Part shown: positions 32,703-47,201 of the stretch, piece by piece | Position numbering within the stretch: position 1 is the first letter of the stretch | Layout: the number at the start of each line of letters is the position of its first letter | IMG/VR virus record: IMGVR_UViG_3300044611_001018 | Length of the DNA stretch: 64,000 bases | Direction: 5' to 3' (one strand) | From: a virus | Taxonomy: Duplodnaviria; Caudoviricetes | Made by a program: the position numbers and the translations under genes | Notes under the pieces: model-generated | Seen by the model: the letters and a program-made list of their open reading frames with translations, nothing else | What the model was told of the DNA's origin: nothing | The model's database searches: none

Positions 32703-34607
32703 TTACAGTCTTATGAACTCGCCGTTTAAGTAGCTAGATGATACTATGTATTGTGATCCTGATATATCAATTCCAGAAGAGATTACATCATTAATCATAT
32801 TTACCATAGATTTAGAATTGTCTAATTGTAAGTATAAATCTTGTTTACCAATAACATCATTAGATTTTGGTATAGCAGAAAATTCAACTATATTATCACC
32901 AAAAGATTTTTTACTAGTTGCTATAATATTCAAAGCATTTATTTTAATCTCACCTTTTTTATAATCTATAGTTCCAACTTTTCTTCTAACAATAACTGGT
33001 TGATTTGAAGCATCCAATTTAAATAAAAATACTGCTCCAAATCCTTCAGCATGTGGAATGTCTGAAAGATAAACTGTACCAGTAATTCCATCAACAGAAA
33101 ATCCACTTGTTTTAAAATTATACCCACTTGGATTTTTGATATGGAATTCATTACCAAAGCAGATTTCATATTCGGTAAATTGACCTAATATAATTTTCAA
33201 GTCTCTCCTTATTTGTAAGGTTGTAATATTTGATGTAATTGCTATAGAAGAATCATCAATTAATTTTAGGAATTTGCTATACTTGAATCTAGATCCATAT
33301 CTATTTAACTCATCAGATTTAGCGAATTTTTCTAATGTTTGTTGGACTTGAGTTTTTAAAAAATCTGCATTACCTTGATTACTATTGTAGTAAACTTTTG
33401 TTTGATATTCAATATACAAATACTTTAAATCTATAAATTCTGGAATTATTCCCGCAACTGCATACTTTCTAAGAGTTGTTTTTAAGTTATCTTTAATAGC
33501 ATTTGGCAAATATGAACCGTTTTTTGGTTTAACTGTAATATATACTTTGCCAAATTTTGGGGGGTCCAATTCTTCTCCACCATAAACAGATACAGATTCT
33601 GTTTCTGGATAAATTAATGGTATTAGTGATTCATAATCTGATGCAGTAACTGCTCTATTTTGTGAAGAGTATACTCTTGGAGCTAATTTTTTAATCGATG
33701 CGATGGATTCGATATCTGACCCATATCCTGCCGCTTCTACGGTTGTTAATAGGGGTTCATCAACGGTAACTGGACTGCCGTTGTTATCTACTAGTCTTCC
33801 AGCAAAACTAAAAGCATTTATACCGTTTGCAATTGTTCCATTAGTTGTAACGTAACTTACCAAAATAAAGTTATCGTTTTCTAATTTGCTGCCAAATGTA
33901 TTATCTCCAAAAATTAATTCATATCTCTGGTCTTCAATTTCATTTAAGAAAAATACATCATCTGTTGATTTGACTGCAGTTAAATTATCGGCAAATTTAT
34001 AAACTCTAGAAATATTACTATTTTTACTTTCTCTAACAGTAACTCTTATCAAACTGGTATCAATATTTTCATTGTTTAAAATAAATCTTTGATTTTTATT
34101 TAAACTATTTACGGTAAAGTTGTCTTCAATATAAGAACCTTCATAAATTACAATATTATCAAAAGTAGCGATTCCATTTGATACAGGAACTGTTACATCG
34201 TCAGGAATTGAATAGATATAATTTAAATTTGAGAATGATGCATTAGATGTTGCAACTATTCCTTTACGTAAAGTAATTGAAATTGGATTTGTGGCAAATC
34301 CAGAAAGATTTACAAAGAATGATATCTTTGCTCTAGAAGATCTTACTGATCTTGGTAGATACCCTAAATTTCTAGCAAGAGAAACTACATTTTCTCTTAG
34401 AGTTGCTCCATCTAAGAATACCTCATTAGTTAACATATTTGCATTATATGAACTAATGTAAGTATTATATGCTAGGGTATCAATTAAAATACTAAAATTT
34501 GATCCTTCAAAATCATAATCTGTAAATCTACCATCAGCTCTCAAGAAACTTTTGATAGATTCCCTTATATCATTAAAATCTAGTGATGATACGTTAACTA
34601 ATGACAT
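32703..34607 (-). CDS. gp6: Baseplate wedge subunit
   Basis: LDFNDIRESIKSFL...FTDYDFEGSNFSILIDTLAYNTY...QNRAVTASDYE. Confidence 0.95.
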   Translation of the reverse strand: MSLVNVSSLDFNDIRESIKSFLRADGRFTDYDFEGSNFSILIDTLAYNTYISSYNANMLTNEVFLDGATLRENVVSLARNLGYLPRSVRSSRAKISFFVNLSGFATNPISITLRKGIVATSNASFSNLNYIYSIPDDVTVPVSNGIATFDNIVIYEGSYIEDNFTVNSLNKNQRFILNNENIDTSLIRVTVRESKNSNISRVYKFADNLTAVKSTDDVFFLNEIEDQRYELIFGDNTFGSKLENDNFILVSYVTTNGTIANGINAFSFAGRLVDNNGSPVTVDEPLLTTVEAAGYGSDIESIASIKKLAPRVYSSQNRAVTASDYESLIPLIYPETESVSVYGGEELDPPKFGKVYITVKPKNGSYLPNAIKDNLKTTLRKYAVAGIIPEFIDLKYLYIEYQTKVYYNSNQGNADFLKTQVQQTLEKFAKSDELNRYGSRFKYSKFLKLIDDSSIAITSNITTLQIRRDLKIILGQFTEYEICFGNEFHIKNPSGYNFKTSGFSVDGITGTVYLSDIPHAEGFGAVFLFKLDASNQPVIVRRKVGTIDYKKGEIKINALNIIATSKKSFGDNIVEFSAIPKSNDVIGKQDLYLQLDNSKSMVNMINDVISSGIDISGSQYIVSSSYLNGEFIRL

Positions 34608-35009
34608 TTATCTGGTTGGCAGTAATACAAATTCTAGTTGTTGTGGTAGGGCATCTATTCCAACTATTAAATATATCACTTTAACATCCATTGCTCCTTC
34701 ATCATAATTTGGAGTTACAGTAACTTCAACTAATTCAACCCTAGGTTCATTATTCCTTATAACACTTTCTATTTCGCTTTTTAATAATTCTGCGGTAGAA
34801 AAATCAATATTTTCAAATAATAATGCATTTGTGAGAGTTCCAATAGTAGGTTCAAAAAATTTCTCCCCTCTAGAGGTCAATACCAAATTCTGGACCGAAC
34901 GTGCTATGGCAGATTCATTCTTTAAAATAGATAAGTCTCTCGTCAGAGGATTTGCCCTTAACGAGAGACTAATATCCTTAAATCCAACACTAATACGCTC
35001 TAGCGGCAT
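34608..35009 (-). CDS. gp25: Baseplate wedge subunit, sheath initiator
   Basis: FKDISL...AIARSVQNLVLT..GEKFFEP.IG...NEPRV. Confidence 0.93.
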   Translation of the reverse strand: MPLERISVGFKDISLSLRANPLTRDLSILKNESAIARSVQNLVLTSRGEKFFEPTIGTLTNALLFENIDFSTAELLKSEIESVIRNNEPRVELVEVTVTPNYDEGAMDVKVIYLIVGIDALPQQLEFVLLPTR

Positions 35010-35975: not shown

Positions 35976-36116
35976 TTAACCTTGTCCTCTATACCTCTTA
36001 CGTGCTCCGTTACGAGACGTTGCGGCGTACTTTGTATGTTTACCCATACCTTGCCGAGTTTTTTTGGGTTTTGATTCAATAACAACTTTACTAGTCAGTG
36101 AAGGTCTTTTTGCCAT
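35976..36116 (-). CDS. Small basic protein (46 aa)
   Basis: Manually translated MAKRPSLTSKVVIESKPKKTRQGMGKHTKYAATSRNGARKRYRGQG. Confidence 0.65.
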   Translation of the reverse strand: MAKRPSLTSKVVIESKPKKTRQGMGKHTKYAATSRNGARKRYRGQG

Positions 36117-36118
36117 AG

Positions 36119-36289
36119 TTAATTTTCAAATAATGGTTCAAGTGAAATCAAATTGGGGTCGATATCTTCCCCCGAGAAAAAGCGTTCAGAGAACTCTTGA
36201 AGAATCTCAGTACAGTCTTCAAGAGTCATACTCTGATATAACGCTCTACCATTATAACACACGTTATAAAGTTTCTCAGAGGTACTCAT
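36119..36289 (-). CDS. Hypothetical protein (56 aa)
   Basis: Manually translated MSTSEKLYNVCYNGRALYQSMTLEDCTEILQEFSERFF...; fills the gap exactly. Confidence 0.6.
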   Translation of the reverse strand: MSTSEKLYNVCYNGRALYQSMTLEDCTEILQEFSERFFSGEDIDPNLISLEPLFEN

Positions 36290-36290
36290 A

Positions 36291-37076
36291 TCAGATTACG
36301 CGAGTCTTCTCATGTCCAACGCGAATCCGTGGGTCACACCACGTTTCAATGCCTGCCTCTTTTGCATCTAGACAGAACGATACGTCCTCTCCACACATAT
36401 CTTGAACTGCACCAGATTCAAAGACTTGCATCTTAGGAGCAAACCAAGGATATTCAAGACGTTCAAAGACACCATGACGAATCATAACCCATCCAAAACC
36501 TGTGTAATCCACGGTGAATGGTTTGCGTCTCTTTGCCATAGATTCAGTGGTTTCATGATTCATAACACCACCGTTCTTACGGAAGTCATCCTCTTCCAAC
36601 CAGTGAGCAACTGAAGTAGTTACCCCATCCTCAGTGGCATACCAACCAGCAACGATTTCTTTTTCTTGCTGTGGGATACCTTCTTTGTCTGGTCCAGGTA
36701 CTGCGAGATCGCACAGTTGCCAGAATTTTTCTGTATTAAACACAATGTCATTATCAATCCAAAGTTGATAATCGTATTGTAGCTTACCGTCCCAAGGAAT
36801 TTGCTTAGGTCCACGAAGAACGTTTGCACCAAGACACTTGCAACGTGCAAAGTTAACCATGGAAGAATAATCTTGAGAGATCTGAATACTCATACCATTT
36901 TGTACAAGGTCAAAACACAGTTGTACAAATGATTTCAGAAATTGATAGGAGCAACCACGTCCTGGGAGACAAAAGACGATGCTCTTGCCCCTCATTCTCT
37001 CCCTAATTGCATCATAGTCCCACTGCTCTTGTGGTTGAGTCGGAGCTGTGGCTTTTACGGTGAATCCTTTTGCCAT
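36291..37076 (-). CDS. Glycosyltransferase (GT-A / GT2-like)
   Basis: IVFCLPGRG, WIDNDIVF (DxD), VDYTGFGWVMI, GEDVSFC, RVGHEK. Confidence 0.8.
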   Translation of the reverse strand: MAKGFTVKATAPTQPQEQWDYDAIRERMRGKSIVFCLPGRGCSYQFLKSFVQLCFDLVQNGMSIQISQDYSSMVNFARCKCLGANVLRGPKQIPWDGKLQYDYQLWIDNDIVFNTEKFWQLCDLAVPGPDKEGIPQQEKEIVAGWYATEDGVTTSVAHWLEEDDFRKNGGVMNHETTESMAKRRKPFTVDYTGFGWVMIRHGVFERLEYPWFAPKMQVFESGAVQDMCGEDVSFCLDAKEAGIETWCDPRIRVGHEKTRVI

Positions 37077-37099
37077 GTTAATTAAGTTTCTTCAGGTCA

Positions 37100-37128
37100 A
37101 TTCTAACGTTTAGTTTTTAGTTTGTCAA
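37100..37128 (-). promoter_or_regulatory. Sigma70-type promoter TTGACA-N17-TAGAAT
   Basis: Near-consensus hexamers with a 17-nt spacer upstream of the glycosyltransferase. Confidence 0.75.
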
Positions 37129-37286
37129 TAGGAAGACTCTACCATGAGTTGTCGATTTACTTCGACTTCCTCATAATCAAACTCTTTGTCTTTGAGTTCT
37201 TCCCACTTCTCTATGAATTCGTCTTCAGAGAGAACTGCGTCAACACAATGATTATCTTTGTCATAGATGTGATAAACTTTGTCCAT
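37125..37286 (-). CDS. Hypothetical protein (53 aa)
   Basis: MDKVYHIYDKDNHCVDAVLSEDEF...; GAGG SD before ATG 37286; extended -10 TGCTATAAT at 37321-37329. Confidence 0.65.
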   Translation of the reverse strand: MDKVYHIYDKDNHCVDAVLSEDEFIEKWEELKDKEFDYEEVEVNRQLMVESSY

Positions 37287-37544
37287 ATTAAATCCTCTTG
37301 ACATTTTTATGTATAATGGTATTATAGCATACCCTTTAGGGTTTATACGACCTTCTGAGGGAAATTTTTTTCCCAAAAATTTTTCATATGAAAGTGAAAT
37401 CACTCACTCGAATTGTCACCTCTGTAGGTTAGGGTAGTGATCGATTTTATATACGGGGGGGGCGCAGGGGGCCGCATTAGTATAACTTATGAATCGATTT
37501 AACTGCCATAACGGATACTGATGAATGAAAGTGTCCGCACGAAT

Positions 37545-37572
37545 ATAAAAAACCCCCTCACGAATGAGGGGG
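37545..37572 (-). terminator. Rho-independent terminator closing the early-gene block
   Basis: Minus strand CCCCCTCA-TTCG-TGAGGGGG followed by TTTTTT (UUCG tetraloop). Confidence 0.85.
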
Positions 37573-37583
37573 CAAAGTGTTAA

Positions 37584-37754
37584 TCAGGGCAGGCAACCTT
37601 TGGAGTCAAGTATACCAATGTGTAGAACATTGTTATACAAACCAGCATAAAGTCTGCCGATTGATAACCCGAACTGCTCATCATCTTTCCATGCCTTTGT
37701 ATCAACGCCAAAGTAGAAGATGGCGGCGAATTGTTGAGGAGTAGAGAAGCGCAT
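37584..37754 (-). CDS. Hypothetical protein (56 aa)
   Basis: Manually translated MRFSTPQQFAAIFYFGVDTKAWKDDEQFGLSIGRLYAGLY...; ends just before the terminator. Confidence 0.55.
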   Translation of the reverse strand: MRFSTPQQFAAIFYFGVDTKAWKDDEQFGLSIGRLYAGLYNNVLHIGILDSKGCLP

Positions 37755-37805
37755 TGTGGTGATGATAGTGTTAACGAAGGGGGGGCATTTCTGCCCCCGT
37801 TAAGT

Positions 37806-37946
37806 TTACTCCTCAGGACCGAAAGCACACTCTAGAGAGTACATTTCCAGTTCCTGATCATCATCATAGAATGATGCCCAATCATCCTCAGTGGGGATAT
37901 AAACATCCTCAATCTGAGGGTCACAAACGAAAGAATCGAAGTTCAT
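37806..37946 (-). CDS. Small acidic hypothetical protein
   Basis: MNFDSFVCDPQIEDVY...LECAFGPEE; TAAGAT -10-like box at 37988-37993. Confidence 0.6.
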   Translation of the reverse strand: MNFDSFVCDPQIEDVYIPTEDDWASFYDDDQELEMYSLECAFGPEE

Positions 37947-38034
37947 TTTCAGGTGTGGGGTTGTGCGGGTGTGTCCCGCTTGAATGTATCTTAAGGGGTG
38001 GGGGCACCCTATGGGCACCCCCTGTCACATTTCG

Positions 38035-38295
38035 TTAGATTCCAGAGAGGGCAGCAATCAGGCGGTCACGCTTGCGGATTTGCTCAAAGTTCACAAACCA
38101 CAGATCCCGCTTTCCGTTATCGGAACGGGTGGCACCTAGAACGCCATCCTTTTCGAGGTCAACCATAAGGGCGTGAATGGTGCCCTTATGGCGACGGGGG
38201 TCAAGACCCATAGAGCGCACAAGGTCGCTGCAGGTCTGGGGTCCGTCGTTGATCAGGCGGGTACGGATTGCGGCGCGGATGATGGAAGCGAACAT
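38035..38295 (-). CDS. Putative winged-helix DNA-binding protein
   Basis: GPQTCSDLVRSMGL...KGTIHALMVDLEKDGVL resembles the MarR/IclR-type HTH plus wing pattern. Confidence 0.55.
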   Translation of the reverse strand: MFASIIRAAIRTRLINDGPQTCSDLVRSMGLDPRRHKGTIHALMVDLEKDGVLGATRSDNGKRDLWFVNFEQIRKRDRLIAALSGI

Positions 38296-38359
38296 GGTCG
38301 GTTTGGGGTTGGGCGAGGTCCGTTTGCCTCGCTTGACAGTATCCTAGACGGTCGGGCGG

Positions 38360-38527
38360 TCAGGTCGTGACCAGAACGGGCGAATCGTTACAATCGGAAA
38401 TAATGTTAACTTGCTCAAAAAATTGCATCCATTCCTCATCACTTAAGACGGTGCAGTTCTTTTCAACAAGTTCAGCGATTCTTTCGGCGGGAAGTTTAAA
38501 CCGAAGGCGGGAGGGATAGTGTGTCAT
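38360..38527 (-). CDS. Hypothetical protein (55 aa)
   Basis: Manually translated MTHYPSRLRFKLPAERIAELVEKNC...; ATGA overlap with the upstream ORF. Confidence 0.55.
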   Translation of the reverse strand: MTHYPSRLRFKLPAERIAELVEKNCTVLSDEEWMQFFEQVNIISDCNDSPVLVTT

Positions 38528-38631
38528 TCTTGAATGATGTTAGCGACGGTGTGCAATGTTGCAGCGGTGGTGTTTCTAACTGGTGATGAGAATAGAAACG
38601 CAACCGCAAAAATCAGAAAGAATGTTCTCAT
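38524..38631 (-). CDS. Small hydrophobic protein (35 aa)
   Basis: MRTFFLIFAVAFLFSSPVRNTTAATLHTVANIIQE; ATGA overlaps on both sides. Confidence 0.55.
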   Translation of the reverse strand: MRTFFLIFAVAFLFSSPVRNTTAATLHTVANIIQE

Positions 38632-38789
38632 TTTTGACCCTCACTGAAAGTAACAACCTCAGCAGGAGAACCACAGGAACGATAGAAATCTACCATACGC
38701 TTTGCCTCATCAATTGTGGGGAAAGTTTGCTCCCGCCATTCACAAGAATTGTAGGGAGTTTGGTAGCGAATGGTGATACCGAGTGCCAT
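38628..38789 (-). CDS. Hypothetical protein (53 aa)
   Basis: MALGITIRYQTPYNSCEWREQTFPTIDEAKRMVDFYRSCGSPAEVV... Confidence 0.65.
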   Translation of the reverse strand: MALGITIRYQTPYNSCEWREQTFPTIDEAKRMVDFYRSCGSPAEVVTFSEGQK

Positions 38790-38850
38790 GATCTTGTGGG
38801 TTTGAAGGTGAAGAATTGGGGGGGAATTTCACCCCCCGTTGTTGTTAACC

Positions 38851-39036
38851 TCAGGCAGTTACAACTGCCACAGTGTAACTAGGACCGCCAAGATTGAAGG
38901 TGCCAATCTTAACAGGAACTCCACCGAGTTCAGCACTCCAATCAAACGCGGCATCGTATGCCTGATCTTGAGTGTAGAACCATTCCTGATCAGCAGGAAC
39001 GAAATCGGTGTGGTCGGGGAGAATGTAGAACCGCAT
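38851..39036 (-). CDS. Hypothetical protein (61 aa)
   Basis: MRFYILPD...AYDAAFDWSAELGG; TAGGAT -10 at 39062-39067. Confidence 0.65.
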   Translation of the reverse strand: MRFYILPDHTDFVPADQEWFYTQDQAYDAAFDWSAELGGVPVKIGTFNLGGPSYTVAVVTA

Positions 39037-39109
39037 GGGGGTGTCCCGTGTTGACCTTGGTATCCTACAGCATGGGAGGGGGGCACCCGTGCCCCCCGTT
39101 AACAAAGGT

Positions 39110-39727
39110 TCACACTAGACCTTTGTGTATCCTACGATACGCGACCCATGTAATCGCCTGAACTTGTGCCGCTGAATGATACTTTTCGGTGACGCTTGAG
39201 ATTAACTTAGCAGCGTCACGGTAAGCATCTTGAATCAGCAGGAAAGTTTTGTCTGACATAGAAGGAACTTCTTTCAGGTTAGAAACACTTCCGTTCCAAA
39301 TGTTGTAGGCGTGACCATCAATGCAGGGAGTGTCAGAATTGCCATCCTTTGCAATACAATTGTAGAAGGCAATTGTTTTGTTTCCGCGTAGAACTTTCTC
39401 GATATACTGATCAGAATCGAGTTGCAGTTCAATGATAGTCCGCGCCTTATCTTTGTTGATAGAATAGGTTGAGACTTTCACATTCTCAAACGGAATTTCA
39501 TAACAATAGGCGCGGAGCATTGTTTCAGCATCCTCTACATTTTGATCCCATTTGTTGTTAGGAGAAAGTGCAGCGATAACACCTGCCACGGTGTTAGGGC
39601 AGAAACCATACTTTTCGCCTAAAGTAACACAAACCATGTAGGCGTTGTGATACCATTGGGCGCCCATCTGCCGATCCAGAGTGTTGCTCTGGAAATAGGT
39701 TGCGATGATCGAATCGGTGTGTGCCAT
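39110..39727 (-). CDS. Hypothetical protein, possible HhH-GPD glycosylase-like fold
   Basis: 205 aa; AGVIAALSPNNKW, GNKTIAFY, PCIDGHAYNIW, VQAITWV. Confidence 0.7.
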   Translation of the reverse strand: MAHTDSIIATYFQSNTLDRQMGAQWYHNAYMVCVTLGEKYGFCPNTVAGVIAALSPNNKWDQNVEDAETMLRAYCYEIPFENVKVSTYSINKDKARTIIELQLDSDQYIEKVLRGNKTIAFYNCIAKDGNSDTPCIDGHAYNIWNGSVSNLKEVPSMSDKTFLLIQDAYRDAAKLISSVTEKYHSAAQVQAITWVAYRRIHKGLV

Positions 39728-39900
39728 GGGGGTGGGTTGGCGTTGCCAGAATCCTACAGCATCGGGGGCACCCTGCAACGGGTTTTACCATCAGGGTTTC
39801 TTATGGGTGACATCAGAAATACTTATGAGCCAGGGGTTGACTTTTAGGGGGCACCGCCCCTACGCTAGAGGGCGGGAGGGGTGGGAAGCATACAGGTATA

Positions 39901-39929
39901 AAAAAACCCCGCCATCGGCGGGGTTTTGT
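39901..39929. terminator. Bidirectional Rho-independent terminator
   Basis: AAAAAAA-CCCCGCC-ATC-GGCGGG(G)-TTTTGT: GC stem flanked by A- and T-tracts. Confidence 0.8.
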
Positions 39930-39935
39930 GTTAGA

Positions 39936-40124
39936 TTAGAACTCTACAATCCAGTCAGGATCTTTGTTTAGATTAACCCAGAAGTGGTTTCTACCGTTGT
40001 GACTGGTGAGGAATACTTTATCCCCTTTGTGTTGTTCTACAATACATTCATCAATTCCATCCATTAAATTAGCAAATCTGTTTTTTGCTTTTTTAGATAC
40101 AGGCGTGACGAATGCGGTGTCCAT
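39936..40124 (-). CDS. Hypothetical protein
   Basis: 62 aa; VTPVSKKAKNRFANLMDG...HFWV...DPDW. Confidence 0.7.
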   Translation of the reverse strand: MDTAFVTPVSKKAKNRFANLMDGIDECIVEQHKGDKVFLTSHNGRNHFWVNLNKDPDWIVEF

Positions 40125-40128
40125 GGTG

Positions 40129-40260
40129 TCAGAAATCGATTGGTTCTAGAGTCGCTTGCATTGTATCATCAGAAGCGGCGATGGTGTCAAGAATCTTGAG
40201 GATTTCTTCACCATTGTTACCCTGACGAAGCATTGAAATCAGAATCGAAGCGTTTTCCAT
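40129..40260 (-). CDS. Hypothetical protein (43 aa)
   Basis: Manually translated MENASILISMLRQGNNGEEILKILDTIAA... Confidence 0.6.
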   Translation of the reverse strand: MENASILISMLRQGNNGEEILKILDTIAASDDTMQATLEPIDF

Positions 40261-40272
40261 GATACGTGATAC

Positions 40273-40334
40273 CTAGTCGAGATTTGTAAGTGTGATAAAC
40301 TCGTCGAGATTAAATGTGATAATCTCGACGAGAT
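40273..40334. repeat. Three copies of the palindrome (AT)CTCG[A/T]CGAGAT
   Basis: 40273 CTAGTCGAGATTT, 40300 CTCGTCGAGATT, 40321 AATCTCGACGAGAT; intergenic. Confidence 0.85.
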
Positions 40335-40343
40335 CTGTTGCTA

Positions 40344-40556
40344 TCAGGCAGCGACCAGTTGCTCGCTCTTGATGGCAGCGTTAACAAAGCGACCCACGCT
40401 ACCCTGAGCATTGATGGTGCTGGTCAGTTCGCTAACAAACTGATCAACTTGGGGCACAGCGTAGGTATACTCACGACCACCGTTGAAGGTGATGGTCACT
40501 TTACCATCTTGCACGTCGCTGATGGACTCGATGGCGGAAGAAGTGAAGTTAAACAT
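40344..40556 (-). CDS. KTSC-domain-like protein
   Basis: SSAIESI...ITFNGGREYTYAVP...GSVGRFVNAAIK matches the KTSC pattern. Confidence 0.6.
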   Translation of the reverse strand: MFNFTSSAIESISDVQDGKVTITFNGGREYTYAVPQVDQFVSELTSTINAQGSVGRFVNAAIKSEQLVAA

Positions 40557-40626
40557 AATGAATTCAAAAAGTAAAGGTTTGAGTGAAGTGTTTTGAGCGG
40601 GATGCTTCACCCCCGCTTGTGAACCT

Positions 40627-40655
40627 AGATTAGCATCACCGCCGTGCGGTGTCAA
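40627..40655 (-). promoter_or_regulatory. Sigma70-type promoter TTGACA-N17-TAATCT, with a dyad element just upstream
   Basis: Plus strand AGATTA 40627-32 and TGTCAA 40650-55. Confidence 0.65.
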
Positions 40656-40779
40656 CCTCTTGGACCACTTCGACAACTGTCACAATCTGTTTATCTTCGT
40701 TGAGATAATTTGTTGTGATTTCATTCGGTCCTGTAATTACTTGACCGACAACGTATGCAACAAGCAAGGATTCAATCAT
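40636..40779 (-). CDS. Hypothetical protein (47 aa)
   Basis: MIESLLVAYVVGQVITGPNEITTNYL...; C-terminus reads through the dyad and promoter. Confidence 0.55.
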   Translation of the reverse strand: MIESLLVAYVVGQVITGPNEITTNYLNEDKQIVTVVEVVQEVDTARR

Positions 40780-40782
40780 GAT

Positions 40783-40923
40783 TCAATAATGATGGCGAGA
40801 CATGACACAGTTGGGGTCATTATACCAATCAGAATCTTCATAATCTTTGTATTCTGTTTCTTGATAATCTTCTTCCAACATTGTGGGCATTGGAATGTCG
40901 TTAACCCAGGTGATGTCAGTCAT
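40783..40923 (-). CDS. Small acidic protein (46 aa)
   Basis: MTDITWVNDIPMP...DWYNDPNCVMSRHHY. Confidence 0.6.
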   Translation of the reverse strand: MTDITWVNDIPMPTMLEEDYQETEYKDYEDSDWYNDPNCVMSRHHY

Positions 40924-40944
40924 GAATCTGTGTTGAACAAACGT

Positions 40945-40986
40945 AGTATGGAATGGATTGGGTCAGAAGTCAACCCCCTGACCCAT
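40945..40986 (-). promoter_or_regulatory. Promoter TTGACT-N17-CATACT (copy 1 of a repeated promoter)
   Basis: AGTATG 40945-50, AGTCAA 40968-73; AGTCAACCCCCTGACCCAT is identical to 41668-41686. Confidence 0.7.
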
Positions 40987-40998
40987 AAGGATTGGTTA

Positions 40999-41457
40999 TC
41001 AATCCAGGGTGAATCGCTCAACCCCCATCATGTCGTTATACTGTTGCAACATGGTTTTCAGGGTTTGACCAGCACGATCGAACGATTTCGTGATGACATC
41101 GTTATACTGATCGTAGTATGCAATTTGTCCATGAATACCCATTGCCGAAGCAACAGGATTCTTTCGGAACGATTGAATACCTGTAGCAGCAAGTTTGCGG
41201 TCAAAAACTTTTGCTTGACCGTTGAGAGTATAAGCGCACAGATACTCTTCAAACACAGGTGCAATTTCTTCCTTTGTAAAAGGAACACGCTTTTGATCCT
41301 CAATCGTCAGAGAATCAATTTGTTCTTGAATTGCTTTAGAAACTGCACGGAATCGAATCCGTTCTTCACGCTCATCAAAAGTGTTAATCATGCCAAATTG
41401 CATGACACTGTTGTAGTTGTCCTCGTAGAAGTTCAGATCTTCTTGAGTGAGAGTCAT
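40999..41457 (-). CDS. Hypothetical protein (152 aa)
   Basis: Co-directional ORF from the track. Confidence 0.7.
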   Translation of the reverse strand: MTLTQEDLNFYEDNYNSVMQFGMINTFDEREERIRFRAVSKAIQEQIDSLTIEDQKRVPFTKEEIAPVFEEYLCAYTLNGQAKVFDRKLAATGIQSFRKNPVASAMGIHGQIAYYDQYNDVITKSFDRAGQTLKTMLQQYNDMMGVERFTLD

Positions 41458-41488
41458 AATAAAGAAAAAAGTTGCGGTGGGTGAGCAA

Positions 41489-41620
41489 TCAAATCATACC
41501 ACGGCGACCGAGGTCTGCCCACACATGGGACGGGGCAGCAGCTGGCACACCAGTGGCGGTGGTGTTCTTGACCCATACCATTTGGCGGGTCTTGAGGTCG
41601 GAGGCGCAAACCAGAGTCAT
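41489..41620 (-). CDS. Hypothetical protein (43 aa)
   Basis: MTLVCASDLKTRQMVWV...; downstream of promoter 41645-41673. Confidence 0.55.
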   Translation of the reverse strand: MTLVCASDLKTRQMVWVKNTTATGVPAAAPSHVWADLGRRGMI

Positions 41621-41644
41621 GGGGTGTTCCCGTGAACTGATGTC

Positions 41645-41686
41645 AGTATGGGTCAGAACGGCAGCAAAGTCAACCCCCTGACCCAT
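41645..41686 (-). promoter_or_regulatory. Promoter TTGACT-N17-CATACT (copy 2)
   Basis: AGTATG 41645-50, AGTCAA 41668-73. Confidence 0.7.
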
Positions 41687-41695
41687 TAGCGTTTC

Positions 41696-41869
41696 TTATC
41701 CTTCCAGAAGTTCAGGATAGTATTCTTCACATTCAGTGATCAATTCTTCTTCAGAATACTTATCATAACCCTCCTCAAGATAATCATAACAAAGTTGGGT
41801 CATTGTCTTAAGGTCCATGTCATCCAACATCTGCTGAATAAGTGCAGTTTGAAGTTCAGAACGGTTCAT
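41696..41869 (-). CDS. Hypothetical protein (57 aa)
   Basis: MNRSELQTALIQQMLDDMDLKTM...EEYYPELLEG. Confidence 0.65.
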   Translation of the reverse strand: MNRSELQTALIQQMLDDMDLKTMTQLCYDYLEEGYDKYSEEELITECEEYYPELLEG

Positions 41870-41871
41870 GA

Positions 41872-42051
41872 TCAAAAACGAATGATAGGGTGGTCAAGAT
41901 CGAGGACATCACATTCCTCAGTTGAAAACACTAACTCTACACTTGCTTGATAATACTCATCGGGTTCATCTTCAGAGCAGATAGCAACATCCTGATTCAG
42001 TTGATCTTCACTAAGTTGTTGCAACTGTTCGAGCAGTTCTTTGTATTTCAT
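41872..42051 (-). CDS. Hypothetical protein (59 aa)
   Basis: MKYKELLEQLQQLSEDQLNQDV...VLDLDHPIIRF; ATGA overlap. Confidence 0.65.
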   Translation of the reverse strand: MKYKELLEQLQQLSEDQLNQDVAICSEDEPDEYYQASVELVFSTEECDVLDLDHPIIRF

Positions 42052-42263
42052 TGAAGAACGTGACGGTAATCGATGGACTTAATGCACCAACCTGATGCAG
42101 TAGAGATTTCCTCTACAAGGTCATCCTCATCATCAGCATCCCAGATTTGACCAACATAAACCTCATTGAGGCGTTCTTCAGTCATAATCTGGTCTGATTC
42201 ATCCCAACCCTCTTCATCATCAAGAGAGCAATCGAATTGAATTGAAGTGATTTGATACTTCAT
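42048..42263 (-). CDS. Hypothetical acidic protein
   Basis: 71 aa; WDADDEDDLVEEISTASGWCIKSIDY. Confidence 0.7.
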   Translation of the reverse strand: MKYQITSIQFDCSLDDEEGWDESDQIMTEERLNEVYVGQIWDADDEDDLVEEISTASGWCIKSIDYRHVLQ

Positions 42264-42344
42264 GATGTTCTGGTGGTGAACAAATGAATGATAGCGCGTG
42301 TGCGCGTCTCGTCGAGATTTTATGGACAGTTCACTGACTGTCCA

Positions 42345-42494
42345 CTAGACAAAAAATTCCTCCAGATAATAGTCTACAGTGACTTCCAGTTTTGCTGCTT
42401 CTTCTTCAATTGCAGCAGTGAATGCCTCATCAATTGACATCACTTCCCTTACAGATTGATGTTCACAAAAGAGGTCAAGAGTAGAATCATTCAT
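42345..42494 (-). CDS. Hypothetical protein (49 aa)
   Basis: EEEAAKLEVTVDYYLEEF; stop abuts the dyad element. Confidence 0.6.
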   Translation of the reverse strand: MNDSTLDLFCEHQSVREVMSIDEAFTAAIEEEAAKLEVTVDYYLEEFFV

Positions 42495-42711
42495 TGGTGT
42501 AAGGTTTGAGAGTGATACGATCTGCCACACACATGATCAGTTCTGCTAGAATTTCATCATCAACTTGACCAAGTTTGTCAACAATGATGCCACCAATGTT
42601 GGTGTGAAGAAATTCAATCCAATCACATGTTTCTACAAGTTCTTCTGCAACTTCTTCAACAAGTGCTGCAGCAATTCTGTTGACTGATTTGTTAGAGAGT
42701 GACATGATCAA
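42487..42711 (-). CDS. Hypothetical protein
   Basis: 74-aa ORF overlapping its neighbours. Confidence 0.65.
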   Translation of the reverse strand: MIMSLSNKSVNRIAAALVEEVAEELVETCDWIEFLHTNIGGIIVDKLGQVDDEILAELIMCVADRITLKPYTNE

Positions 42712-42857
42712 CCCTCCCCTGCAATGTTCATTGCGTCAATGACCTTATCATAAAGATCAGAGACATCGCAACCCACACGCTCACTCACCTCATCCCAATC
42801 ATCATGGAAGGAGATTAAATCAGCAAGGGCACTGAGTTCGTTGATGGTGAAGTTCAT
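42708..42857 (-). CDS. Hypothetical protein (49 aa)
   Basis: MNFTINELSALADLISFHDDWDEVSERVG...; follows the TATACT -10 at 42880-85. Confidence 0.6.
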   Translation of the reverse strand: MNFTINELSALADLISFHDDWDEVSERVGCDVSDLYDKVIDAMNIAGEG

Positions 42858-42923
42858 TGGAGTGGTGTGAACTGAAGTCAGTATAAGGGGTGGAGGGGCG
42901 CCTGTGCGCCCCGTTGTGGACAG

Positions 42924-43388
42924 TTACGCTGCTGTCACATACCCAGGGATTTCGACACGCTCTACAGGTCCCCAACCAATCTTATATGCCTTCCAGTTAC
43001 CATTGAGGTCATACAGGTAAGCATACTCTTCGCCACCCATTTTACCAGAGACAAACATATCGAAGTCGGTGACATCTGGTTCATTATTCTCACCACGCTC
43101 TGAATGATACAGCGGTTGTGCATCACGAGTGTGGGAATAAGACCAACTGCCAGCATCATCTTCGATGATCTTGCCATTCTCATCACGAAGAGCAGCACTC
43201 TCCCACGTATGAGTTGTGCGAAGAGATGACATTGAACCACCGTCGATGAGATCTTGCACATCATCGCGGTTCTGATAATGATCTACCAGAATGCGACCGT
43301 TGCCTTCTACGTAACCATCCCAGTGGCAGTAAACGCTAACCACAGAATGGTCGGGGAGTTCGTAACCGATGCGTGAACGGGTTCCCAT
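42924..43388 (-). CDS. Conserved phage hypothetical protein
   Basis: 154 aa; MGTRSRIG...SVYCHWDGY...EEYAYLY. Confidence 0.8.
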   Translation of the reverse strand: MGTRSRIGYELPDHSVVSVYCHWDGYVEGNGRILVDHYQNRDDVQDLIDGGSMSSLRTTHTWESAALRDENGKIIEDDAGSWSYSHTRDAQPLYHSERGENNEPDVTDFDMFVSGKMGGEEYAYLYDLNGNWKAYKIGWGPVERVEIPGYVTAA

Positions 43389-43637
43389 GGGGTGTTGTGT
43401 TCAGGACTCCGCCAATATAACCGCTGCAGACCCACCCTGCAACCAACCAGTGGACTGTCCAAAAACTGGCACATCATCGGATTAATTCCGATCTTCTATG
43501 GTATCTTATAAGGACAACCAGCGCCCTTATAGGGAACGGCAGAGGGGTATCTGCCTGATCAATACATCGTCACTGAACCTGCAAACTTTTTTATAAAAAG
43601 TATACAAAAACATAAAAAGACCTTATGTGCCCCCACC

Positions 43638-43667
43638 TTGACACATAAGGCCCTTCTATGTTATACT
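43638..43667 (+). promoter_or_regulatory. Counter-oriented sigma70-type promoter TTGACA-N18-(TGT)TATACT
   Basis: -35 lies inside the inverted repeat CCTTATGTG (43621-29) / CACATAAGG (43642-50); extended -10. Confidence 0.55.
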
Positions 43668-43677
43668 GAGGAGTTAA

Positions 43678-43848
43678 CTACCAGATATCAGAATCCAAAT
43701 CCTCAATATAAGCATCGCACCTCTCACCAGATTCAAGTTTAAACATCTTCTCCCAATTAATATTATGGGGGTCAAAGTCACCAAGAACGTCGAGTTCCAG
43801 AGTGACGCGATAACGATGCTTACGTGCTTGATCGTAAATGGTTGCCAT
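43678..43848 (-). CDS. Hypothetical protein (56 aa)
   Basis: Manually translated MATIYDQARKHRYRVTLELDVLGDFDPHNINWEKMFKLE...; has its own promoter. Confidence 0.7.
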   Translation of the reverse strand: MATIYDQARKHRYRVTLELDVLGDFDPHNINWEKMFKLESGERCDAYIEDLDSDIW

Positions 43849-43872
43849 GAGAACTTTGTGCGAACTGTAGTA

Positions 43873-43901
43873 ATCTTACCCCACACTCACCGTTGTGTCA
43901 A
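43873..43901 (-). promoter_or_regulatory. Sigma70-type promoter TTGACA-N17-TAAGAT
   Basis: Plus strand ATCTTA 43873-78 and TGTCAA 43896-901. Confidence 0.7.
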
Positions 43902-43995
43902 TACCTTATAAGAATGTATTGATAACGATGGTTTATATATGACATAAGGAGACCTTATATGATACTGTGTGCTTGTTATATCATGATTCGCACAC

Positions 43996-44145
43996 ATCTC
44001 GACGAGATTCTTATATAATGATTCTATGATACTGTGTGCGTCTCGTCGAGATTTATGATGCGTGTCTCGTCGAGATTCTTATATAATGATTCTGTTATAC
44101 TATGATATACTCGTCGAGATTCTCATCGCGGGTCTCGTCGAGATT
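43996..44145. repeat. Iteron-like array: five TCTCG[A/T]CGAGAT palindromes in a degenerate 68-bp tandem duplication
   Basis: Centres at 44002, 44046, 44070, 44114, 44138 (spacing 44/24/44/24); CGAGATTCTTATATAATGATTCT repeated at 44003 and 44071. Confidence 0.9.
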
Positions 44146-44178
44146 TATGTGAGAATCCTTATATTTTTTTCGCGGGTC

Positions 44179-44207
44179 TTGACGTTTTTTTGCGGTTGTG
44201 CTATAAT
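44179..44207 (+). promoter_or_regulatory. Strong counter-oriented promoter TTGACG-N17-(TGC)TATAAT
   Basis: Near-consensus hexamers plus extended -10; no plus-strand ORF follows. Confidence 0.65.
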
Positions 44208-44387
44208 ACGCTGTCTAAGATCACAAGGATTCAGAGGGATTATAAGAGAGTTATAAAAAGATTCCACACGATTATAAGGCAATAATAAGATATAACAATA
44301 CTGTAATACTATATGTTATTGATAATGATTATCAGTAACAACAAAACACTTTTATATTTAAAAATACATTTAATTAATAAAATAAAC

Positions 44388-45365
44388 CTATTTTAACCAT
44401 AATTTGTCAATTTTCATCCTATTTTCAAAGATATTATATCTTAATGCACAATGATGACTTTGAGGTGGTACAATGATTGGATTATAATAACCAGTGAATT
44501 CTCTATAACATTTTTTAAAATCTAATATATGTTCACCAGACCTTAAAAATGGATGAACTACAATCAAATAAGGTTCATCAGTCTCTGGTAATTTAAACTG
44601 AATGACACGATTTGATTGATAATGATCTGGATTATTTGCATCAAATATATGAACACCTATATGTTCAAATTGATGAGTTTGATAGATGTTTTGTAATGCA
44701 TTAATAACATTATTCTCATTAATTGGTTTATCCATAATATGTGTATAATGATGAAAATGACTTGATGATTGAATCACCTCATTATAATACTCAGCAAACT
44801 TAGGAGATAAACCAAGATCTAATGTTACACCTTCTGAGATACCTGGATTATGCTCAACATTAACCAAATGAGAATATTCTTTAGGTGTAAGTCTTACAAT
44901 ACTAAACTGAATGATATATTCAGATGGTAGCATTTTAAATGGCAATGGTACATCAAATGCTGTACCCATCATATCATTCCAAATATAAGACCCTACCAGT
45001 TCATGAAAGAGAATATCAATATCTTTGACATTATACGAATTAAATTTAGATGCAATAAACTCAGTATTAATGACTTCAATCTTTTTAGACAATCCCATTC
45101 TTTTTGCTACATTTTGAATATGTGCCGCAGACTTAGGATTTTGTTCAAAACACGTTACATGCTTTGCTCCATGCTTTAATGCTAAAAATGCTAATACACC
45201 ACTACCTGACCCTACATCAATGCAACGTTTACCCTTACACTCTTTAAGTATCTGATCATAATATCCTAAACGCATTGATTCATTGATCAATGCAATTCCG
45301 TTATACTGAGAACTCATTCTATTTTGTTGTCTCATTCTTAAACTATAATTCCGATCAAAGTCCAT
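44388..45365 (-). CDS. SAM-dependent methyltransferase, protein-arginine-methyltransferase-like
   Basis: Motif I IDVGSGSGVL, post-I HVTCFE, DILFHELVG, followed by a beta-rich C-terminus. Confidence 0.8.
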   Translation of the reverse strand: MDFDRNYSLRMRQQNRMSSQYNGIALINESMRLGYYDQILKECKGKRCIDVGSGSGVLAFLALKHGAKHVTCFEQNPKSAAHIQNVAKRMGLSKKIEVINTEFIASKFNSYNVKDIDILFHELVGSYIWNDMMGTAFDVPLPFKMLPSEYIIQFSIVRLTPKEYSHLVNVEHNPGISEGVTLDLGLSPKFAEYYNEVIQSSSHFHHYTHIMDKPINENNVINALQNIYQTHQFEHIGVHIFDANNPDHYQSNRVIQFKLPETDEPYLIVVHPFLRSGEHILDFKKCYREFTGYYNPIIVPPQSHHCALRYNIFENRMKIDKLWLK

Positions 45366-45633: not shown

Positions 45634-46023
45634 TTAATCCAATTTTGATACTATTTGATTACCATTGAAATGATTTTTCAATTTCATTACTTGATCTCTA
45701 AACTTATTTTCTGGACAACGCTGCCTACCCAAATTAAATAACCTCAAAGCAATAACAACATTATTGGGAATATAACCTTTAGATTCATCCAATCTTTCTA
45801 AACTAGGTGCAAGTGGATTATTCCTCTCATAAACACCGTAAGGGTCAATTGGATATTCAGTCCAATAGCATTTACCATTTTGTTGTTTATATTGTTTTAT
45901 AAGATAAAATTCATCTATACTAACATCTAATGGTTCTGTTCTTTTAATACCATTCTTTTTTTCTTGTCCAGGTCGGGCGGCAGTCTTTGCTTTTGCTATG
46001 AGAGTCTTCCAAGGATTTCTCAC
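45634..46023 (-). CDS. HNH-like endonuclease
   Basis: QQNGKCYWT...PSLERLDESKGYIPNNVVIALRLFNLG resembles the SxDRIDxxKGY..dNv..c...N HNH variant. Confidence 0.65.
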   Translation of the reverse strand: MRNPWKTLIAKAKTAARPGQEKKNGIKRTEPLDVSIDEFYLIKQYKQQNGKCYWTEYPIDPYGVYERNNPLAPSLERLDESKGYIPNNVVIALRLFNLGRQRCPENKFRDQVMKLKNHFNGNQIVSKLD

Positions 46024-47201
46024 ACCTTTACCTCAATCACTTGACTTGCACATTTACCACCAAAACCAAAACTATTGTTCACAGTCCTTAGAACCTTTGA
46101 TGTTGTCTTCAAATCACATGAAGTCCTTACAAGTTGCTTTGAGACATCATACTCTGCATTCTCCAAATTATAACATCCAGGAATCACACAATTCCTCATG
46201 GATAGGATAGAGTAAATACACTCCAATACAGATGCAGCAGCAAGTGTATGACCAATCTTTGACTTTGGTGCATAGATTGGAACATCAGGCAAATAATCTT
46301 GCAATACCTGATATTCAATCTCATCACCAATCGGTGTACTCGTAGCATGTGCAGAGATTGCATCAATTGTATCAGGTTCAATACCATCCAATGCCTTATC
46401 CAATGCAAGTTTTGCACCAACACCATTTGTTGCAGGACTTGTTAAATCAAATGCATCACTTGCACAACCAACAGGATATAACTTTGCATACACATTTGAA
46501 TCATATTGTTGTACTTTATCTTTTGATTGCAAAATTAAAATACCCGCGCCTTCTCCCATCACAAACCCTTCACGATTCTCATCAAAAGGACAATTGTGAT
46601 TACCCAGTGCGCCAATGCCTGCGAAATACTTCAATGCCATCTCAAATACACCAGCATCAGCACCACCTACCACAACATAGTCATACTCATCCAATATCCT
46701 CATTGCATAATCAATTGAATACATTCCAGTCGCACACGATGCATACAATGCCACTGATGCACCATGAAACTTATAATGACTCGTAATCTGACCTACAATC
46801 ATATCTGGAATACGATTGACAATCTTGAATGGATTCACTCTCTTATTCTCTTTAAACCGTTGGAAGTTACCATCAAGGAACTCCACATCATTAGAGACAC
46901 TTGATACAATCACGGCAACATTCGATGAGTGTTTTAGATTTGCCATCTTCAATGCCTGCTCAGTTGCATGAAGTGCCATCTGTTGCGCTCTGGTCATGTT
47001 AGCGGTTATTTTCGGCGTAAACGCCTCGGGAAGTAGAATATCATGCAAACATGGAATACCATACTGAATCTTATGCTCACCCATAAAATCAAGTTTCTGA
47101 ATCGGATTATAATCATTAATCATATTCAGAAAACAATTCCCAGGTCGATTACCCAATGCATCGACCATACCATAACCAACAACATAAGCAGGATTGACCA
47201 T
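46020..47201 (-). CDS. fabF: Beta-ketoacyl-ACP synthase (KAS II/I, thiolase fold)
   Basis: Catalytic Cys (ASCATG), His (ISAHATSTPIGD), His (KSKIGH); GEGAG; C-terminal NSFGFGG. Confidence 0.9.
   Translation of the reverse strand: MVNPAYVVGYGMVDALGNRPGNCFLNMINDYNPIQKLDFMGEHKIQYGIPCLHDILLPEAFTPKITANMTRAQQMALHATEQALKMANLKHSSNVAVIVSSVSNDVEFLDGNFQRFKENKRVNPFKIVNRIPDMIVGQITSHYKFHGASVALYASCATGMYSIDYAMRILDEYDYVVVGGADAGVFEMALKYFAGIGALGNHNCPFDENREGFVMGEGAGILILQSKDKVQQYDSNVYAKLYPVGCASDAFDLTSPATNGVGAKLALDKALDGIEPDTIDAISAHATSTPIGDEIEYQVLQDYLPDVPIYAPKSKIGHTLAAASVLECIYSILSMRNCVIPGCYNLENAEYDVSKQLVRTSCDLKTTSKVLRTVNNSFGFGGKCASQVIEVKV

Follow-up and report, generated by a model that had tools for sequence, protein, structure and literature searches.

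The window, i.e., the whole stretch of 64,000 nucleotides (64 kb) analyzed here, belongs to a T4-like cyanomyovirus. Nearly all of its genes are on the minus strand; the baseplate wedge protein gp6 corresponds to ORF 32703-34607 and gp25 to 34608-35009. At 43849-44387 a gap of about 530 bp is present. A comparison of the window ORFs with the loci of relatives disclosed no conserved ORF in this gap, in agreement with the original prediction, which had been made from the sequence of the window. Within the gap an array of five TCTCGWCGAGA palindromes spans positions 43997-44143. The array is located at the right end of a GC-rich island (42-51% GC at 36-44 kb, about 30-35% on either side; about 31% in the genome). 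The GC content is 0.445 at 43-44 kb and drops to 0.300 at 44-45 kb, i.e., the compositional boundary noticed earlier is real. The features of the locus and of its surroundings are listed in Table 1.

Table 1. Features of the palindrome array, the promoters, the leader and the neighboring genes (positions of the window)
Feature	Position	Strand	Remarks
Secondary array, three sites	40272-40333	.	40272-40282 (degenerate), 40299-40309, 40323-40333; motif scan
Small acidic ORF, 46 aa	40783-40923	-	homolog of P-SSM2 PSSM2_098; 3 kb from the array here, own promoter
Single site	42307-42317	.	overlaps two predicted promoters of the minus strand, ahead of the 71-aa gene (42048-42263)
Small gene, 56 aa, 'RVTL' family	43678-43848	-	constant divergent neighbor of the module
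P_L, leftward sigma70-type promoter	43873-43901	-	TTGACA-17-TAAGAT; promoter scan; 25 nt before ATG of the 56-aa gene
Palindrome copy 1	43996-44008	.	ATCTCGACGAGAT; core 43997-44007, TCTCGACGAGA; sole perfect 6-1-6 and sole A-centered copy
Tandem duplication, 68-bp unit x 2	43997-44132	.	halves 43997-44064 and 44065-44132, 76% identical, two palindromes each
Palindrome copy 2	44040-44052	.	GTCTCGTCGAGAT; core 44041-44051, TCTCGTCGAGA
Palindrome copy 3	44064-44076	.	GTCTCGTCGAGAT; core 44065-44075, TCTCGTCGAGA
Palindrome copy 4	44108-44120	.	TACTCGTCGAGAT; core 44109-44119, ACTCGTCGAGA; one outer mismatch, A for T
Palindrome copy 5	44132-44144	.	GTCTCGTCGAGAT; core 44133-44143, TCTCGTCGAGA
P_R upstream element	44149-44178	+	CCTTATA word, T-run, GC-rich clamp; counterpart of GGTCTC / ATTTTT / G-rich stretch of relatives
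P_R, rightward promoter	44179-44207	+	TTGACG-17-TATAAT, extended -10 TG; promoter scan
P_R transcript start	44215-44228	+	conserved CTAAGATCACAAGG; leader also in S-SM2, L063, L084, L331, L347
Short repeats around DnaA-like box	44238-44278	+	repeats GATTATAAG (44238, 44270); box GATTCCACA (44260-44268)
Perfect 7-1-7 palindrome, Fur-box type	44320-44334	.	TGATAATGATTATCA; position of ATTCTCA...TGAGAAT in relatives (23/61)
AT-rich stretch, candidate unwinding element	44346-44400	.	92% A+T; duplex-stability ranking
Class I methyltransferase-like gene	44388-45365		abuts the module in the window

The centers of the five palindromes (44002, 44046, 44070, 44114 and 44138) are spaced 44/24/44/24, exactly as read before. 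All copies had been described as 6-1-6 palindromes. This is correct for copy 1; copies 2 through 5 are 5-1-5 palindromes with a conserved AT on one flank. The 44/24 rhythm exists because a 68-bp unit is tandemly duplicated, and the degenerate unit proposed originally is indeed present twice. Both repeated AT-rich spacer words were relocated, TTCTTATATAATGATTCT within the 68-bp unit and ATGATACTGTGTGC at 43955-43972 and again at 44022-44039. When up to one mismatch to TCTCGWCGAGA is allowed, the 64-kb window contains 8 matches vs. 0.20 expected from shuffled sequence, and none of 100 shuffles reached 8. This bears out the earlier argument that such palindromes are improbable by chance.

Two divergent promoters of the sigma70 type, P_L and P_R, had been predicted to the left and to the right of the array, and a promoter scan recovered both. 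P_R is directed against all flanking genes. It possesses a normal -35 box (TTGACG) and no MotA box. The distance from the center of copy 5 to this -35 box is 41 bp. The DNA downstream of P_R is ORF-free up to the AT-rich stretch, which lies 140-190 nt from the promoter; among 12,790 segments of 50 bp from the 64-kb stretch it ranks second in duplex instability. The leader of the window has a single imperfect DnaA-like box, matching TTTTCCACA in 7 of 9 positions, and its repeats are shorter than the tandem repeats of relatives. The palindrome at 44320-44334 was considered as a Fur box and dismissed, because its Fur-box character is not retained in other modules. A search of Rfam with 43500-44700 returned no meaningful match to an RNA family.

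Homologs of the RVTL protein (50-56 aa) adjoin the array or the promoter in about 28 loci and in S-SM2. The methyltransferase-like gene on the opposite side of the gap has no matches in the array loci and is, therefore, not a conserved neighbor. The original prediction was correct with regard to the five copies of the main array and missed the secondary array and the single site (Table 1). On one side the secondary array is bounded by the stop codon of a 70-aa gene, on the other by the ATG of a 43-aa gene. Equivalent secondary arrays with 3-4 sites were found in the loci L032, L066, L068, L102, and L110. The secondary arrays adjoin a hairpin, and only a few bases separate their end from the start codon of a small gene. 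The minus-strand promoters which the single site overlaps are TGGACA-16-TAAAAT (42344-42317) and TCGACG-16-TATCAT (42315-42288). The acidic ORF of the PSSM2_098 type begins inside the array in P-SSM2 and in many contigs. In P-SSM2 one site fills the spacer of its TTGACA-17-TATAAT promoter and another one is located just before its ATG. Further copies of the site are inside the acidic ORF, where CTCGACGAG reads Leu-Asp-Glu.

Distribution of array and module among cyanophages

When IMG/VR was scanned for pairs of sites separated by 8-20 nt, the pattern was identified in at least 118 contigs; by our own rough estimate chance alone would yield about one. The GC content is about 40% in nearly all of these contigs, and their 3-10 sites are clustered. 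They encode homologs of gp6, gp25 and the small ORFs of the window a few kb away; therefore, the arrays are syntenic with that of the window. A search for arrays at the syntenic position of related genomes had been suggested originally, absence from close relatives being named as the counter-evidence. What is observed is a recurrence in many relatives.

The cultured phage P-SSM2 has an array at 65995-66169 which holds five of the six relaxed matches in its genome. It is the one complete array-bearing genome examined, and it carries a single module. Palindrome arrays were not found in S-SM2, S-PM2, P-HM2, and P-SSM4. The sole palindrome match of Syn9 falls inside the primase gene and was discarded as a module; there is no array in Syn9. 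S-SM2 possesses P_R, the leader and DnaA boxes without the palindromes. The P_R-type promoter with its leader was not found in Syn9, S-PM2, P-HM2, and P-SSM4 when up to 3 mismatches were allowed. A pair of DnaA boxes in S-PM2 was rejected as a module; it is located in a tRNA gene cluster. As the module is missing from Syn9, S-PM2, P-HM2, and P-SSM4 it cannot be a universal origin of cyanomyoviruses.

The closest relatives of the window module, L063 and L084, contain 3-6 sites with different spacings. Thus, the array is conserved and the 44/24 rhythm is not. The "strict" periodicity claimed originally is specific for the window with its 68-bp duplication, as relatives have 3-10 sites with other spacings. 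Copy number and arrangement of the sites change quickly between relatives.

P_R is homologous to a promoter which is conserved in about 60 unique modules, in S-SM2 and in P-SSM2. The conserved layout of the relatives comprises a GGTCTC word, a T-run, a G-rich clamp, CTTGACAAACTGCGCGTCTTATG, a TAcgcT -10 box and the leader CGCTCGCTAAAC-TCACAAGAC. P_R and leader of the window are a variant of this layout which is shared by S-SM2, L063, and L084. We compared the leaders of 61 unique modules, that of the window included. In every one of them the region transcribed from P_R is ORF-free and opens with phage-specific tandem repeats of 10-35 nt, which nearly always have a TTATAAG-like core; the ORF-free leader is 200-300 nt long, and all 61 modules end in very AT-rich DNA. 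Two to four perfect DnaA boxes of the cyanobacterial type (TTTTCCACA) follow P_R in 12 modules, and in S-SM2 as well. An inverted repeat ATTCTCA...TGAGAAT is present in place of DnaA boxes in 23 modules, and 26, the window among them, have neither. In 984 kb of loci, 62 of 78 DnaA boxes are within 600 nt of an array, in zones which make up 17% of the length.

Beyond the module, a gene for a GIY-YIG-like homing endonuclease is encoded on the P_R strand in about 20 of 60 cases, i.e., after about a third of the modules. HNH-like or small zinc-ribbon-like genes follow some others, and further ORFs on the same strand occur elsewhere. The window, S-SM2, and P-SSM2 have no endonuclease-type gene after the module. 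Some of the endonuclease genes seem to carry a late-type TATAAATA-like box of their own before the ATG, as judged by eye.

Site model, helical phasing and the half-site

The motif derived from 628 unique sites is a 15-bp quasi-palindrome, AATCTCGACGAGATT. One of its outer flanks is far better conserved than the other. Among these 628 sites neither a -10-like box nor an ATG start codon is positioned at a fixed distance. Therefore, the site stands alone and is not a fixed promoter element, a reading which was rejected. Because the arms comprise 5 bp around a center of 1 nt, the site cannot form a hairpin and presumably is a binding site in duplex DNA.

The spacings between sites in 92 unique arrays fall into clusters of 21-24, 29-33, 39-43, and 59-68 bp with few values between. 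These clusters are whole numbers of helical turns. The window itself is only loosely phased, as 44 bp correspond to 4.2 and 24 bp to 2.3 helical turns. The distances which separate the -35 box of P_R from the last site are clustered, too (41-45, 52-54, 64, 72-77, 82-85, and 91-95 bp). A scan of this distance for periods of 7-15 bp gave a peak at 10.0-10.25 bp, with R values of 0.50-0.56. A Rayleigh test at 10.5 bp yields a nominal p of about 1e-6 to 1e-7; owing to the relatedness of the modules this value is inflated and not a true probability. A period of about 10 bp places the sites on one face of the helix relative to P_R. The direction shared by the majority of the sites is toward P_R in about 50 of 60 unique main arrays.

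A set of contigs fetched via an unrelated winged-helix-like ORF, and so unselected for the motif, was used to examine the half-site. The contigs without palindromes contain direct repeats of (G/A)ATCTCG(T/A) or ATCTAG in the corresponding position ahead of P_R; some of these repeats have a period of 11 bp. At least three half-sites are present within 315 nt upstream in 20 of 25 promoter modules. The density upstream of P_R amounts to 19.9 half-sites per kb vs. a background of 1.3 per kb. Eleven of these modules are palindromic and about six are of the direct type. Since direct half-sites replace palindromes at the same spot, the half-site ATCTCG would be the unit which is recognized. One unit in two architectures is to be expected of selection for a binding protein, not of chance or copying alone.

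Interpretation of the module

We propose that the five palindromes are binding sites, with ATCTCG as half-site, for a sequence-specific protein which would assemble along the DNA. Within T4-like cyanomyoviruses they would form the upstream portion of a conserved control module, a non-coding region of about 0.5 kb (43873-44400). Once bound, the protein may control two back-to-back host-type promoters, with P_R as the main target. Firing against the direction of the genes, P_R would read into the ORF-free leader, the short repeats, the DnaA-like box and the most meltable DNA of the region. By analogy to T4 oriE and oriF/oriG, the module most likely would serve as a transcription-activated origin in which the transcript opens and primes the AT-rich DNA, and the array would set the time at which P_R fires. 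The sites, their conservation and phasing, and the organization of the module are seen directly in the sequences, whereas we infer protein binding, regulation of P_R, and a start of replication at the module with unequal confidence. That the sites bind a protein and act on the P_R/P_L pair is quite probable, because they are conserved, are phased to each other and to P_R, and because the half-sites come in two arrangements. For the combined reading, a binding platform within an origin-like module, we estimate a probability of roughly 0.45. An origin function, taken by itself, is a tentative proposal. An even more specific version appears rather unlikely: the ATCTCG arrays would be iterons for an initiator or an origin-control protein encoded by phage or host, and the module would be the primary origin of a large clade which includes P-SSM2; host-factor sites, i.e., DnaA boxes, ATTCTCA inverted repeats and the Fur-type palindrome of the window, would be exchanged as interchangeable modules for sensing.

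Several properties speak for an origin, i.e., the ORF-free leader, tandem repeats which evolve quickly, DnaA boxes in a fifth of the relatives, the AT-rich end, the single module in P-SSM2, and a P_R opposed to the direction of the genes. The lack of RepEA/RepEB homologs and the absence of the module from several cyanomyoviruses speak against it. In the window itself, the single imperfect DnaA-like box and the loose phasing of the sites count against the combined reading. The extra sites before other small genes (40272-40333, 42307) fit a transcription-factor regulon equally well. The cumulative GC skew, recommended originally as a check, rises monotonically in P-SSM2 and S-SM2 and has no turn at the module. 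As this is due to the location of nearly all genes on one strand, the skew is uninformative as an origin test. In the literature searched, the sole statement about a cyanophage origin concerns Syn9, for which a single origin was predicted (PMC2984593).

We were unable to tie a DNA-binding protein to the motif using Pfam, co-occurrence of homologs and a structure model. Pfam reported no DNA-binding family among the neighboring small ORFs and no family for the 56-aa RVTL gene. A winged-helix-like ORF of 86 aa (38035-38295), with MarR_2 and DsrD as look-alikes, was discarded; 50,697 phage records, P-SSM2 included, contain no homolog, and of 32 carrier contigs with enough flank only 17 have arrays. 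The ORF for 62 aa (39936-40124) was excluded as well, being present in the array-less S-SM2 and absent from the array-bearing P-SSM2. The RVTL protein is not supported as a binder; it, too, is encoded in the array-less S-SM2, and its AlphaFold2 model (pLDDT 79.5) has almost no secondary structure, no ribbon-helix-helix and no other DNA-binding fold. A very acidic 71-aa protein is the sole ORF of the window shared with P-SSM2 but not with S-SM2; it is an unlikely binder. When bacterial genomes were scanned for the site pair the matches were single and mostly from bacteria of high GC content, for example Actinomycetota; they probably represent Leu-Asp-Glu codons read in frame. The 120 matches listed included no cyanobacterium, i.e., a host regulon did not emerge. 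The binder may be encoded outside of the window or by the host.

How do other explanations compare? A role restricted to transcription has to be taken seriously, although our estimate for it is clearly below even. The array then would be a multi-site operator or enhancer which times or shuts off the promoters of small genes and has no part in replication; P_R would make a non-coding or antisense RNA, or feed a variable slot for counter-oriented genes. This agrees with the site at 42307 in predicted promoters, with the secondary array directly before an ATG, and with the P-SSM2 sites in the promoter spacer and before the ATG of the acidic ORF. Sites which overlap strong promoters are at about -42, -24, and -2 with respect to the predicted start, typical positions of a regulator. 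DnaA boxes can act as transcription-factor sites, and a homing-endonuclease-like gene follows on the P_R strand after about a third of the modules, with other same-strand ORFs elsewhere. Yet an overlap with a strong promoter is limited to 57 of 1256 site instances, and the main array ends at least 41 bp upstream of the -35 box of P_R. Further, tandem repeats, DnaA boxes and an extremely AT-rich end are unusual for a simple untranslated leader; a matching RNA family was not obtained from Rfam, and some endonuclease genes seem, by eye, to have late-type boxes of their own.

The exact coincidence of the array with the GC boundary at the right end of the 36-44 kb island could be taken as a sign of recombination. 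The locus might be a hotspot at which homing endonucleases or PeSL-like promoter cassettes shuffle genes, and the motif might persist by gene conversion and not because a regulator needs it. GIY-YIG-like genes directly after about 20 of 60 modules and HNH-like genes after others, the displaced acidic ORF in the window, and the fast change of copy number and arrangement among relatives would conform to a mobile cassette. We consider this improbable, however, because helical phasing, a half-site retained in two arrangements and the single locus of P-SSM2 point to selection on binding; moreover, arms of 5 bp around 1 nt do not permit a PeSL-type stem-loop. Very improbable are targets of modification or restriction, the reader of which would be a methyltransferase, a nuclease or a protein sensitive to methylation. 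TCGA is part of every site and GATC of about a third of them, GAGATC/GATCTC is enriched 9.5-fold upstream of P_R, and a class I methyltransferase-like gene abuts the window module. But the conservation extends over 11-15 bp, well beyond TCGA or GATC; the methyltransferase-like gene is without matches in the array loci, and methylation would not require phasing to a promoter. Packaging or segregation had been considered in the original prediction, next to an origin or a regulatory hub. Repeated protein-binding sites in non-coding DNA are typical of pac and par sites, too. Packaging in T4-type phages, however, follows the headful mode and requires no specific site, and a lytic phage has no need of partition. 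As terminase or Par genes were not found near the array, and the array is tied to a promoter, a pac or partition site is scarcely credible. What is retained of the earlier proposal is a conserved array of the protein-binding type in a regulatory or origin-like hub; nothing points to packaging or segregation.

We thus return to the binding platform in an origin-like module and to its significance. Few viruses of the oceans are as abundant as the T4-like cyanophages. As far as the literature was searched, neither their origins nor the proteins which time early and middle transcription are known. The module is compact, conserved, easily cloned and present in the cultured phage P-SSM2; therefore, the questions of origin and regulator are directly testable. 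New is that the array and the DnaA-box cassette belong to one module, that the array is phased to P_R, and that the half-site ATCTCG is the conserved unit. Its occurrence in two architectures offers a way to trace the binder through co-variation. The exchange of host-factor sites after P_R suggests that the phage may couple the locus to host physiology, such as the DnaA status. If the module were only a regulated promoter it still would be a new regulatory element, albeit of an ordinary kind.

Comparison with known systems

The element acts like an iteron or operator array, yet it lacks at least one defining feature of each of the named families with which we compared it. The literature searched contains no paper with the motif in a phage context, nor did we find a description of the array there, in line with the original suggestion of an uncharacterized cyanophage element. 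Doron and colleagues in 2016 reportedly defined a conserved, cyanophage-specific cis-element of early genes in T4-like cyanophages, in a region of small genes. To our knowledge, no factor that binds to it is known. Syn9, which we take to be the phage in which that element was defined, has no array and a single match in the primase gene; therefore, our array is different from it. Arbiol and colleagues are said to have described in 2010 PeSL promoter-stem-loop cassettes of T4-type phages. Similar to these, the sites discussed here are repeated and associated with promoters, and they are found among small early genes where the genome is plastic. In contrast to PeSL, a stem-loop is impossible (5-bp arms, 1-nt center), and in P-SSM2 there is essentially one locus.

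The lambda operators OR and OL resemble the array in their short sites of variable number and orientation, in a spacing which looks cooperative, and in the location of some sites in promoter spacers or starts. Heptad arrays of the omega repressor of pSM19035 work in direct or inverted order. Unlike in multi-site operators, the main array is upstream of both promoters and overlaps neither P_R nor P_L, and no repressor gene was recognized among the ORFs neighboring the array. Theta origins with iterons and DnaA boxes (R6K gamma, P1 oriR, pSC101) likewise combine, in a compact module of non-coding DNA, repeated sites on one helical face with an AT-rich stretch; DnaA boxes are added here in about 20% of the relatives, and the window has its one 7-of-9 box. 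They differ in that a Rep-type initiator gene was not identified beside our array, that our sites may be palindromic or direct half-sites, depending on the phage, and that the DnaA boxes can be replaced by the ATTCTCA...TGAGAAT element or be absent.

T4 itself offers two comparisons. At oriF and oriG a promoter and a downstream unwinding element act together in R-loop priming (PMC3016281). The module shares with them a strong promoter which reads into an AT-rich, easily melted and ORF-free stretch. The T4 promoters are MotA-dependent, whereas P_R is a plain sigma70-type promoter with an array of sites upstream. Cyanophages lack motA and asiA (PMC5780444).

The second comparison is oriE. According to the original prediction T4 has no such iteron system; in fact, T4 does carry iterons, precisely at oriE. 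This origin, with repEA and repEB, comprises an early promoter, evenly spaced repeats of unproven function and tiny rep genes (PMC3016281). The oriE repeats (GTTGAAGGTAAT) are 12-nt direct repeats with a 24-bp period inside the coding sequence of gene 5 and share no sequence with ATCTCG; our module, on the other hand, is intergenic, and its small genes are co-directional with the flanking genes. When the window, the loci, P-SSM2, and S-SM2 were searched by tblastn for homologs of RepEA and RepEB, no significant match was obtained. The overall organization, nevertheless, is alike. In both instances a cluster of repeats is situated beside a host-type promoter which fires against the surrounding genes, tiny genes (45-56 aa) are attached, and the location is just upstream of the gp6 baseplate block, i.e., oriE at 79355 and gene 6 at 81081 in T4, and the module at 44 kb with gp25/gp6 at 32.7-35 kb in the window.

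The GC-rich block and its neighbours

Over 8 kb of the window (36000-44150), running into the module, i.e., the conserved non-coding control region which carries the palindrome array, the GC content is 42-51%, compared with ~30-35% for the genome. This island is densely packed with small ORFs, and its right boundary coincides with the position of P_R, the rightward sigma70-type promoter. The island looks like a segment that came from a cyanophage of higher GC (Synechococcus-type), and the conserved module looks like the point of crossover.

Three ORFs on this side merit description. The viral family of the 86-aa ORF has ~425 members; no homolog was found in any deposited phage genome searched. 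The 46-aa ORF is conserved in the cyanophages P-SSM2 and S-SM2 and in 29 loci. The very large ORF matches the corresponding stretch in both P-SSM2 and S-SM2, at 31-37% identity. On the right side the phage carries a beta-ketoacyl synthase, an uncommon type of metabolic gene in cyanophage.

Coordinates of features in the window and in two reference phages
Feature	Position	Strand	Remarks
Very large ORF, ~4,287 aa	19835-32698	-	directly downstream of gp6 in transcription direction
Extremely basic ORF, 46 aa	35976-36116	-	14 Lys/Arg, 1 acidic residue
Basic ORF, 86 aa	38035-38295	-	language-model look-alikes: winged-helix families MarR_2, DsrD
Hairpin, 20-bp stem	43659-43612	-	inside region 43612-43667
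Second strong promoter, TTGACA-18-TATACT	43638-43667	+	promoter scan
Perfect 7-1-7 palindrome TGATAATGATTATCA	44320-44334		classic Fur-box form; within P_R transcript region
Class I methyltransferase-like gene	44388-45365	-	near beta-ketoacyl synthase gene
Endonuclease VII/HNH-like gene	45634-46023	-	adjoins beta-ketoacyl synthase gene
Beta-ketoacyl synthase gene	46020-47201	-	matches to both halves in Pfam (E 5e-25, 4e-22)
PSSM2_098, small acidic Tyr/Asp-rich ORF	P-SSM2 66124-66279 (L248 3625-3780)		also in many loci
T4 oriE 'iterons', 24-nt period repeat GTTGAAGGTAAT...	NC_000866 79400-79570 (L354 4903-5070)		inside gene 5

Genes and signals around P_R

Of 60 modules, about 20 carry a homing endonuclease gene of GIY-YIG-like type on the P_R strand, directly past the AT-rich stretch; in others the position after the promoter is taken by HNH-like genes or by a small ORF of the zinc-ribbon kind. 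Such genes are located 180-360 nt after P_R (L100, L106, L108, L117, L118, L035, L049, L073, L089, and other loci). The site past P_R resembles a landing pad where selfish genes settle.

The Fur-type palindrome is the sole perfect 7-1-7 palindrome in 64 kb, and it is not conserved across the other modules compared. The second plus-strand promoter is contained in the hairpin region and, like P_R, is directed against the genes.

Repeats that are also coding sequence

In P-SSM2 and in many loci, copies of the array palindrome are in frame within the PSSM2_098-type ORF, where they encode Leu-Asp-Glu. Therefore, the putative binding sites and coding sequence overlap. In T4 the repeats of oriE, with their 24-nt period, fall in the repetitive C-terminal coding part of gene 5, and these 'iterons' may partly be a reflection of protein repeats.
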